DNA of 21,099 nucleotides from positions 1 to 21,099 of the forward strand of contig WAKA01000151.1 in the NCBI GenBank assembly GCA_015523565.1, in the 5' to 3' direction. Within the stretch, counting starts at the first letter, position 1. Every line of letters begins with the position of its first letter. Source of the stretch: Candidatus Heimdallarchaeota archaeon (GTDB taxonomy: Archaea; Asgardarchaeota; Heimdallarchaeia; Heimdallarchaeales; Kariarchaeaceae). Shown in pieces: positions 8,275 through 9,209 of this stretch. A model generated the notes under the pieces. The model was not told the origin of the DNA and did not search any database. It saw only the letters and a program-made list of their open reading frames with translations. A program made the translations under genes and the position numbers.

Positions 8275-8370
8275 GTCAGAAGCCTTTTGTAATTTACCAA
8301 AAAAGAAACAATGCATCTAGAATATAAAGGAAAATTATTTAACAAGCAAATCATTTAAGAATTTGGTAAA

Positions 8371-8471
8371 GGGCTTGTGGTGAAGTGGAATCACATTGGC
8401 CTTCGGAGCCAACGTCCCGGGTTCGAAACATTAAATTTTGCGGATTTGATGCGAATGTCCCGGCAAGCCCT
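8371..8471 (+). tRNA. tRNA-Arg(UCG) containing a 30-nt T-loop intron
   Basis: Acceptor GGGCTTG/CAAGCCC; D-arm GTGA-AGTGGAA-TCAC (G15, G18G19, Arg identity element A20); anticodon arm TTGGC-CTTCGGA-GCCAA with anticodon TCG at 8403-8405; T-stem CCGGG/CCCGG; T-loop TTCGAA|intron|T; CCA not encoded. Confidence 0.95.
8428..8457 (+). other. Non-canonical tRNA intron at position 59/60 (BHB motif)
   Basis: Central 4-bp helix TTCG/CGAA, 3-nt bulges AAA and TGT, flanked by the T-stem and the intron stem CATTAAATT/GATTTGATG. Cutting after the 2nd base of each bulge restores TTCGAAT. Confidence 0.92.
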
Positions 8472-8524
8472 TTCATTTTTCTGCAAAAACAGAGAGTTAA
8501 TAACTGATGAAACCGTTTAAAATA

Positions 8525-8590
8525 TGGCGATGAAGAAAAAACCCCAGAAGGAGCTTTTAGCAATGAATTCCACACGACAATTCTGAGCCA
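8525..8590 (+). ncRNA. Candidate box C/D guide sRNA
   Basis: Terminal stem TGGC/GCCA; box C ATGAAGA 8530-8536; 12-nt spacer; D' AGGA 8549-8552; hairpin GCT-TTT-AGC; C' ATGAATT 8563-8569; 13-nt spacer; box D CTGA 8583-8586. Both box pairs fit K-turn geometry. Confidence 0.68.
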
Positions 8591-8594
8591 ATTT

Positions 8595-9209
8595 TCAACC
8601 AACATATTTGATGGACATTAATTCCAAAATCTCACCTGCTGCTTTTATTAGAGCCATTATGACTTGAGCTCGTTTATGCATTCTAGAAAGTGCTTCGAAT
8701 TCTTTCCAATCATTTGAAGTTTTGAAGTAACCTGCCTCCACTTCCATTCCCTTTTCAACAACATTGTCTCGTAATTCTTCAATTCCACGAACTAGTTTCA
8801 ATGCGTCATCAAAACTTGTGTAAACAATTTTGATTGCTTCACCCAAGTTTTGGCTGGAAGTTTTTATTGCATCAGAAACAAATTTTATGTCTGCTGTAAA
8901 ATTACGTGGAAGGCTTTCATTGTATTCTTTGACAGTTCTTGCGGTTCGTGCGAATTCGTCCAAAATATCGTCAATCCGCCTCAGGAGTTTTGCACGGTCG
9001 AGGGCAAGATAGGGAACTGACTGTTGCGTCGCAAAATGCCTGTTAAGTTCATCACGCACCCTATCACCCTTTTCTTCCAAGTCAAGTACAAGCATGATTT
9101 TTTCCATATTAATTTCTGGACTGAAGATTATTTCGCTTATTAGTTTTCCCCCTTCAGAAATGAGATCTGCTAGTTCAAAGAATTTCTCTTTTTCTTCTTT
9201 TTTATTCAT
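8595..9209 (-). CDS. DUF47/PhoU-like phosphate transport regulator
   Basis: All-helical 204 aa with 'LEEKGDRVR' and 'RRIDDILD' motifs; immediately downstream of a PiT transporter, the usual DUF47 context. Confidence 0.85.
   Translation of the reverse strand: MNKKEEKEKFFELADLISEGGKLISEIIFSPEINMEKIMLVLDLEEKGDRVRDELNRHFATQQSVPYLALDRAKLLRRIDDILDEFARTARTVKEYNESLPRNFTADIKFVSDAIKTSSQNLGEAIKIVYTSFDDALKLVRGIEELRDNVVEKGMEVEAGYFKTSNDWKEFEALSRMHKRAQVIMALIKAAGEILELMSIKYVG

Follow-up and report, generated by a model that had tools for sequence, protein, structure and literature searches.

Can a tRNA gene whose T-loop is interrupted by 30 extra bases be a working gene, and, if so, how unusual is the intron that it contains? 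This question is raised by a locus in the genome of a Heimdall-group Asgard archaeon, which is located on a stretch of 21,099 nucleotides (contig WAKA01000151.1 of assembly GCA_015523565.1), herein referred to as the window; the genome of the window is named G000. The initial annotation of this DNA had called the genome Asgard-like, which is borne out by its origin. It had further proposed that the locus encodes a hidden tRNA-Arg(UCG) with an intron at tRNA position 59/60. To our knowledge, neither this gene with its 59/60 intron nor the genus has been described individually.

Introns outside the canonical position 37/38 are established features of archaeal tRNA genes, and 59/60 is listed among the known non-canonical positions (Yoshihisa 2014, PMC4090602). 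In three complete Asgard genomes, introns occur in 92-95% of the tRNA genes and often reside at non-canonical sites (Valentin-Alvarado et al. 2024, PMC11291895). A catalogue of Asgard tRNA introns reports two main sites of called introns, 37/38 and the T-arm, with enrichment of the canonical motif being strongest among the T-arm insertions (Goswami et al. 2026 preprint, bioRxiv 10.64898/2026.10.13.758758). For Asgard archaea, a splicing endonuclease EndA of the (αβ)2 type with an L1 insert and a broad specificity has been reported (Kaneta et al. 2018, PMC5829648).

Architecture of the tRNA-Arg(UCG) gene

Positions 8371-8471 on the plus strand of the window read directly as a tRNA cloverleaf with 30 additional bases in the T-loop. 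Exon 1 (8371-8427, plus strand) comprises tRNA positions 1-59, i.e., the 5' strand of the acceptor stem, the D-arm, the anticodon arm, a 4-nt variable loop, the 5' strand of the T-stem, and T-loop positions 54-59; it was delimited by ARAGORN on the spliced sequence, a partial Rfam tRNA match (8371-8425), and direct reading. The anticodon TCG is found at 8403-8405 within the anticodon arm TTGGC-CTTCGGA-GCCAA, the acceptor stem is formed by GGGCTTG and CAAGCCC, and the D-arm carries G18G19. The intron of 30 nt at position 59/60 (8428-8457, plus strand) comprises an inner hairpin (8429-8451) and the 3' strand of a central helix (8452-8455) and ends two bases into a 3' bulge; its assignment is based on the restoration of the tRNA upon its deletion, the predicted fold, and same-site introns in two congeners, G001 and G002. 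Exon 2 (8458-8471, plus strand; direct reading and ARAGORN on the spliced sequence) contains T60, the 3' strands of the T-stem (8459-8463) and of the acceptor stem (8464-8470), and the discriminator T at 8471. On direct reading, the universal tRNA nucleotides U8, A14, G18G19, U33, G53-C61, T54, and A58 are in place, as is G37.

ARAGORN calls no tRNA in the whole window or in the intact precursor. Once 8428-8457 is deleted, it calls a 71-nt tRNA-Arg(tcg) with the 7-nt T-loop TTCGAAT, so that the split cloverleaf of the initial annotation is recovered. Rfam at gathering thresholds yields no match in the window; in permissive mode, the tRNA model aligns locally, in a forced manner, to 8371-8425 and scores 28.7 bits, which is below the cut-off of 29. 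The observation is hence confirmed, and its core reading is supported: 8371-8471 of this Heimdall-group Asgard genome is a tRNA-Arg(UCG) gene with a bulge-helix-bulge (BHB) intron at 59/60. That such a gene is easily missed holds true for ARAGORN and Rfam, but less so for tRNAscan-SE, which is reported to usually call Asgard T-arm introns (bioRxiv 10.64898/2026.10.13.758758).

The bulge-helix-bulge motif

The precursor had been claimed to fold as a strict BHB on the T-stem, and indeed the MFE structure adopts exactly this form, the hBHBh' splicing motif spanning 8417-8463 on the plus strand. The outer helix h is the 5-bp T-stem (CCGGG 8417-8421 and CCCGG 8459-8463), followed by a central helix of 4 bp (TTCG 8422-8425 and CGAA 8452-8455) that is flanked by two 3-nt bulges, AAA (8426-8428) and TGT (8456-8458). 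The inner helix h' is formed by CATTAAATT (8429-8437) and GATTTGATG (8443-8451); it comprises 9 bp including two G-U pairs, appears as a hairpin of 9-10 bp in the fold, and is closed by the loop TTGCG. Both h and h' have at least the 2 bp of the flanking helices of a BHB motif, and excision restores a canonical tRNA. When 8417-8464 is folded by itself, MFE and centroid structures are both the exact hBHBh' at -15.8 kcal/mol, and 5 of 200 shuffled sequences fold as well. The same local fold is contained in both the MFE and the centroid structure of the whole 104-nt precursor. By our own rough estimate, a chance origin of the 13 further pairs in exact register, with the T-stem given, amounts to 0.375^13 (~3e-6) and is thus unlikely.

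The cuts are predicted after 8427 and after 8457, i.e., after the second base of each bulge. This rule was checked by a genome-wide scan for strict BHB motifs followed by excision and ARAGORN, a procedure that is blind to relaxed motifs and to genes with two non-canonical introns. The genome contains 88,787 candidate motifs; hence, the motif alone is common by chance. Upon excision and ARAGORN, the rule recovered the canonical 37/38 introns of tRNA-Glu(CUC), tRNA-Glu(UUC), and tRNA-Asn(GUU) in addition to the tRNA-Arg(UCG) gene. In the tRNA-Arg(UCG) gene, cuts by the same rule would yield TTCGAAT, as claimed.

Other 59/60 introns in the same genome

Three more tRNA genes of G000 contain a strict-BHB intron of 29-31 nt at 59/60, as revealed by a scan that allowed for an extra canonical intron: tRNA-Trp(CCA) (contig C50, 7091-7121, minus strand), tRNA-His(GUG) (C140, 19014-19044, plus strand), and tRNA-Gln(CUG) (C232, 3374-3402, plus strand). 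Each of them carries a 37/38 intron as well. ARAGORN mistakes the Gln gene for Glu(ctc) under some settings and for Val under others. Hence, introns at 59/60 are present in four of the approximately 40 detected tRNAs of this genome. The four introns are no more alike than shuffled controls, so that there is no sign of intron copying between tRNAs, and such copying within G000 was rejected. It had been asked whether other tRNAs share the intron: the position is shared by Trp, His, and Gln, but the sequence similarity is at chance level.

Many isoacceptors, among them Ala-UGC, Phe, Lys-UUU, Thr-GGU, Gly-GCC, and Ile, were not detected in G000 by ARAGORN and Rfam. Two partial Rfam tRNA matches that ARAGORN does not call were observed at C142:5850-5903 (minus strand, model positions 10-63) and at C218:10648-10710 (minus strand, model positions 5-66).

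Same-site introns in related genomes

In a search of 60 related genomes, an insert of 30 nt at the same site was found in G001 and G002, which belong to the same genus as G000 and G003. The exons of G001 are nearly identical to those of G000, and their two differences form a compensatory 27:43 pair. G002 contains an 18-nt intron at 37/38 in addition to the 59/60 insert. In both species, the exons are nearly identical and the introns have an identity of 30-60% (60% for G001 and 33% for G002 relative to G000). The central helix (TTCG with CGAA or CGGA), both 3-nt bulges, and the inner hairpin are kept in all three species. In G001, the inner helix is imperfect at the 5' bulge, where 2 bp are followed by a 1-nt bulge and 6 bp, and the BHB fold lies 2 kcal/mol above the unconstrained MFE. 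Covariation was counted on these three species, which are all the carriers of the tRNA-Arg(UCG) intron in the comparison, and thus rests on very few sequences. An insert that drifts fast in sequence while its length and fold are kept between conserved exons bears the signature of a spliced spacer and not of a pseudogene.

The remaining relatives differ in their intron content. G003 contains the tRNA-Arg(UCG) gene with a 37/38 intron only, and in G007 and G009, which represent other genera of the family, the gene is intronless. Flanking DNA matches G000 in G001 alone, downstream of the tRNA; G002, G003, G007, and G009 have no match within ±1.5 kb and, therefore, their orthology rests on isoacceptor identity. 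In a tree of the RtcB ligase from G000-G003, G007, and G009, all inner forks are below the support thresholds, which leaves gain versus loss unpolarized. Judged by pairwise identities, each taken to G000 only (92, 87, 82, 78, and 77%), G003 would be the congener farthest from G000. That the intron is present in some members of one genus and absent from another is of modest but practical use for tracing how introns are gained and lost.

Necessity of the gene and alternative explanations

A second tRNA-Arg(UCG) gene was not found in G000 by ARAGORN with introns allowed, Rfam, or blastn, the assembly being approximately 90% complete in 233 contigs. Within this scope, the question of the initial annotation, whether this is the only UCG tRNA of the genome, is answered in the affirmative. 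Neither did blastn detect another UCG gene in G001 and G002. CGA makes up 12% of the Arg codons, or 5.1 per 1000 codons, in 1385 long open reading frames of G000. The gene is most probably functional and is apparently the sole UCG arginine tRNA gene of the genome. For annotation, it supplies an otherwise missing decoder of CGA codons; in a genome report omitting it, the organism would seem to lack an essential tRNA.

Three other explanations of the insert have to be weighed. It might have killed the gene, leaving a decaying pseudogene while a working copy resides in the unassembled 10% of the genome. This would agree with the incompleteness of the assembly (~90%) and with the failure of generic scanners to call the gene. 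Against it stand the exons, in which ARAGORN finds no defect once they are spliced, the exact BHB register of the insert, and its length of 30 nt, held with compensatory changes in three species whose exons are conserved. Moreover, no other UCG gene is found in G000, nor by blastn in G001 and G002, and the genome has three further tRNAs of the same construction. Decay is hence very unlikely. Practically negligible is a chimeric join, by which the insert would be an artefact of assembly or binning that is absent from the DNA of the organism. The genome is admittedly a fragmented metagenome-assembled genome, and the best-matching DNA sample is probably the source sample itself, which comes from a hydrothermal vent; nevertheless, the same study provides a contig from another sample that extends over 8308-8455, and thus over the 5' junction and almost all of the intron, with strain-level differences only, and the independent assemblies of two other species contain an insert of equal length at the same site. 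An assembly artefact, which the initial annotation had named as a way in which its reading could fail, is therefore contradicted by this second contig and by the agreement of three independent assemblies.

The third explanation accepts the insert as real but retains it in the mature RNA, which would then be an unusual tRNA or tRNA-like RNA with an extended T-arm. Its removal is, after all, so far deduced from sequence. In a retained form, T54-G57 would stay paired, abolishing the contacts between T-loop and D-loop that all elongator tRNAs need. In addition, the motif is an exact EndA substrate in a genome that encodes both EndA and RtcB, and the intron sequence drifts freely save for its pairing, as expected of a discarded spacer. 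Retention is thus considered extremely unlikely. Gene anatomy and motif are directly established, as are their conservation with compensatory changes and the genes for both enzymes; the best explanation of the locus, at a probability of roughly 0.9, is a tRNA-Arg(UCG) gene whose 59/60 BHB intron would be cut out by EndA and whose exons would be ligated by RtcB.

Splicing machinery and proposed pathway

A profile search of G000 with PF01974 (tRNA_int_endo) yielded two EndA paralogues, scoring 88.7 bits on contig C222 and 50.6 bits on C219. The C222 protein has 197 aa and matches best the catalytic α subunit of Aeropyrum pernix (3P1Z_B, E 1e-26). The alignment preserves the three catalytic columns (Tyr, His, and Lys), runs gap-free through the crenarchaeal-specific loop (residues 13-60), and places K51 on A. 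pernix K44. The C219 protein has 209 aa, matches the EndA of Methanopyrus and Methanocaldococcus, and contains a Lys at the catalytic His column; it would fit a structural β subunit. The two paralogues are thus predicted to form an (αβ)2 splicing endonuclease with an L1/CSL loop, its heterotetrameric state and substrate range being read from the protein alignments. The RtcB ligase is encoded on C95. A further PF01974 match of 23 bits, which is below the cut-off, was observed at C18:2199-2390 (plus strand) inside a 719-aa open frame.

With these enzymes, splicing is proposed to proceed as follows. In the precursor, the T-loop bases 54-57 would pair with the intron CGAA to form the 4-bp central helix, with the T-stem serving as the outer helix. 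EndA, as (αβ)2 composed of catalytic α and structural β subunits, would then cut both 3-nt bulges between their second and third bases, i.e., after 8427 and 8457, and RtcB would ligate the exons to give the predicted junction GGTTCGAA|TCCCGG. Joining would restore the T54-A58 and G53-C61 elements and the T-loop TTCGAAT. As the gene does not encode a CCA end, this would be added last.

Genomic surroundings

The gene resides in an intergenic gap of 320 bp. One neighbor is a 442-aa open reading frame without a Pfam family; the other side is occupied by a divergent pair of a PhoU-like and a PHO4 phosphate-transporter gene. Sequence reading reveals an A/T-rich, TATA-like element, ATTATTTAA, at 8335-8343 (plus strand), approximately 32 nt ahead of the first base of the tRNA, which is possibly a putative archaeal promoter; G001 contains CTTAAAG at a similar distance upstream of its tRNA. 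A run of five T at 8476-8480 (plus strand), 5 nt past the discriminator, is likely a putative archaeal oligo-T transcription stop. An 84-aa open reading frame on the minus strand (8351-8605) runs across the tRNA, has no Pfam family, and was taken as spurious.

A box C/D-like small RNA was observed at 8519-8595 of the window (plus strand), at a distance of approximately 50 nt from the 3' side of the tRNA; it contains GATGAAGA, CTGA, and a terminal stem TGGC/GCCA. Its 5' part, TGGCGATGA[A/C]GAAAAAACCCCAGA, is conserved in G001, again downstream of the tRNA (locus L002, about 1690-1730); hence, it may be co-transcribed with the tRNA. A guide-target search for this RNA gave low-complexity or chance matches only.

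Distribution of 59/60 introns in archaea

Species genomes were scanned with the pattern CCGGGTTCGAA-N(9-39)-YGRRNN-TCCCGG, which matched at least 120 loci, at least 88 of which turn into valid tRNAs once the insert is removed. Among the matches listed, nearly all reside in records titled archaea, including Thermoplasmata, Nitrososphaerales, Woesearchaeota, Aenigmatarchaeota, Methanosarcinales, Hadarchaeota, and Thermoproteota, and the Asgard groups among them are Hermod-, Hod-, Heimdall-, Jord-, and Prometheoarchaeota. Two recurrent isoacceptors were observed among the matches listed. tRNA-Gly(UCC) with a GC-rich 59/60 intron of 29-34 nt is found in approximately 27 species genomes, mostly titled Thermoplasmata, and tRNA-Asp(GUC) with a 59/60 intron of often only 15-16 nt in approximately 14 genomes, several of which are titled Nitrososphaerales, Nitrososphaera, or Woesearchaeota. 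The loci of these two types comprise L014, L019-L021, L031, L036-L038, L049, L053, L060, L068, L074, L083, L086, L099, L107, L109, L110, and L113, among others.

A narrower pattern applied to metagenomes retrieved 11 high-GC contigs from soil or peat (L133-L143), in which tRNA-Arg(UCG) itself contains a 59/60 intron of 25-32 nt. The intron helix covaries between these contigs, the acceptor stem is the same as that of the gene in the window, and one of the introns matches the intron of a Thermoplasmata MAG (L116). They probably represent an independent case of the same isoacceptor with an intron at the same position.

A recent gain of the tRNA-Arg(UCG) 59/60 intron at the level of the genus is a tentative and rather doubtful reading. 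It is based on the presence of the intron in G000-G002 and its absence from G003 and two other genera of the family, and further on the same isoacceptor with a 59/60 intron in the high-GC contigs resembling Thermoplasmata. If such a gain had occurred, the T-loop, whose arm mimics the anticodon arm, could for that reason be a recurrent landing site, and G003 versus G000-G002 would provide a natural before-and-after case for the arrival of archaeal tRNA introns.

Comparison with known systems

Measured against known systems, the intron of tRNA-Arg(UCG) is well formed but ordinary, a standard BHB intron of the EndA/RtcB type, since introns of its kind have been described before, in Asgard as well as in many other archaea. 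It resembles the non-canonical BHB introns of other Asgard archaea (PMC11291895; bioRxiv 10.64898/2026.10.13.758758), which are likewise short, BHB-bounded, situated outside 37/38 and often in the T-arm, and presumably served by the same machinery. Those studies center on two groups with an interruption in nearly every tRNA, Atabeyarchaeia and Freyarchaeia, whereas in G000 the 59/60 position is occupied in the four tRNAs described above. The gene thus contributes one clean cross-species example to what has been published on Asgard archaea, namely their tolerance of BHB introns outside 37/38 and their EndA of the crenarchaeal type.

The initial annotation had gone further in stating that the intron bears on how the eukaryotic 37/38-focused splicing endonuclease arose. 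It does add one example, but the statement was overstated, with Asgard non-canonical introns and (αβ)2 EndA already published (PMC11291895, PMC5829648) and 59/60 already listed (PMC4090602); by itself, the gene provides no new way of testing how the restriction of the eukaryotic endonuclease to 37/38 came about. As for the enzyme, the (αβ)2 EndA of A. pernix (3P1Z/3AJV; PMC5829648) has the same set of two paralogues and, in α, the catalytic Tyr/His/Lys together with the loop Lys of the K44 column, the difference being that the heterotetramer state and substrate range of the G000 enzyme are predictions from sequence.

The 59/60 introns of Thermoproteales and other Crenarchaeota (Marck & Grosjean 2003; Sugahara et al. 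2008; in PMC4090602) follow the same hBHBh' logic and also occur in genes that have a 37/38 intron, as is the case for tRNA-Trp, tRNA-His, and tRNA-Gln of G000. In Thermoproteales, however, many introns form sequence families that are common to several tRNAs, which has been read as transposition (PMC4090602), in contrast to the four introns of G000 with their chance-level similarity.

The closest architectural counterpart is the canonical 37/38 intron, which exhibits the same geometry: a 5-bp stem forms the outer helix, and the first four loop bases pair with the intron to form the central helix. It is cut after loop base 6 and before base 7, which in T-loop numbering corresponds to 59/60; herein, the T-arm mimics the anticodon arm. 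Unlike the canonical intron, that of the G000 tRNA-Arg(UCG) is situated in the T-loop, and splicing must therefore precede formation of the T-loop/D-loop tertiary core. Both positions are used within one genus for this isoacceptor, the orthologous gene of G003 being interrupted at 37/38 instead of 59/60 and that of G002 at both.
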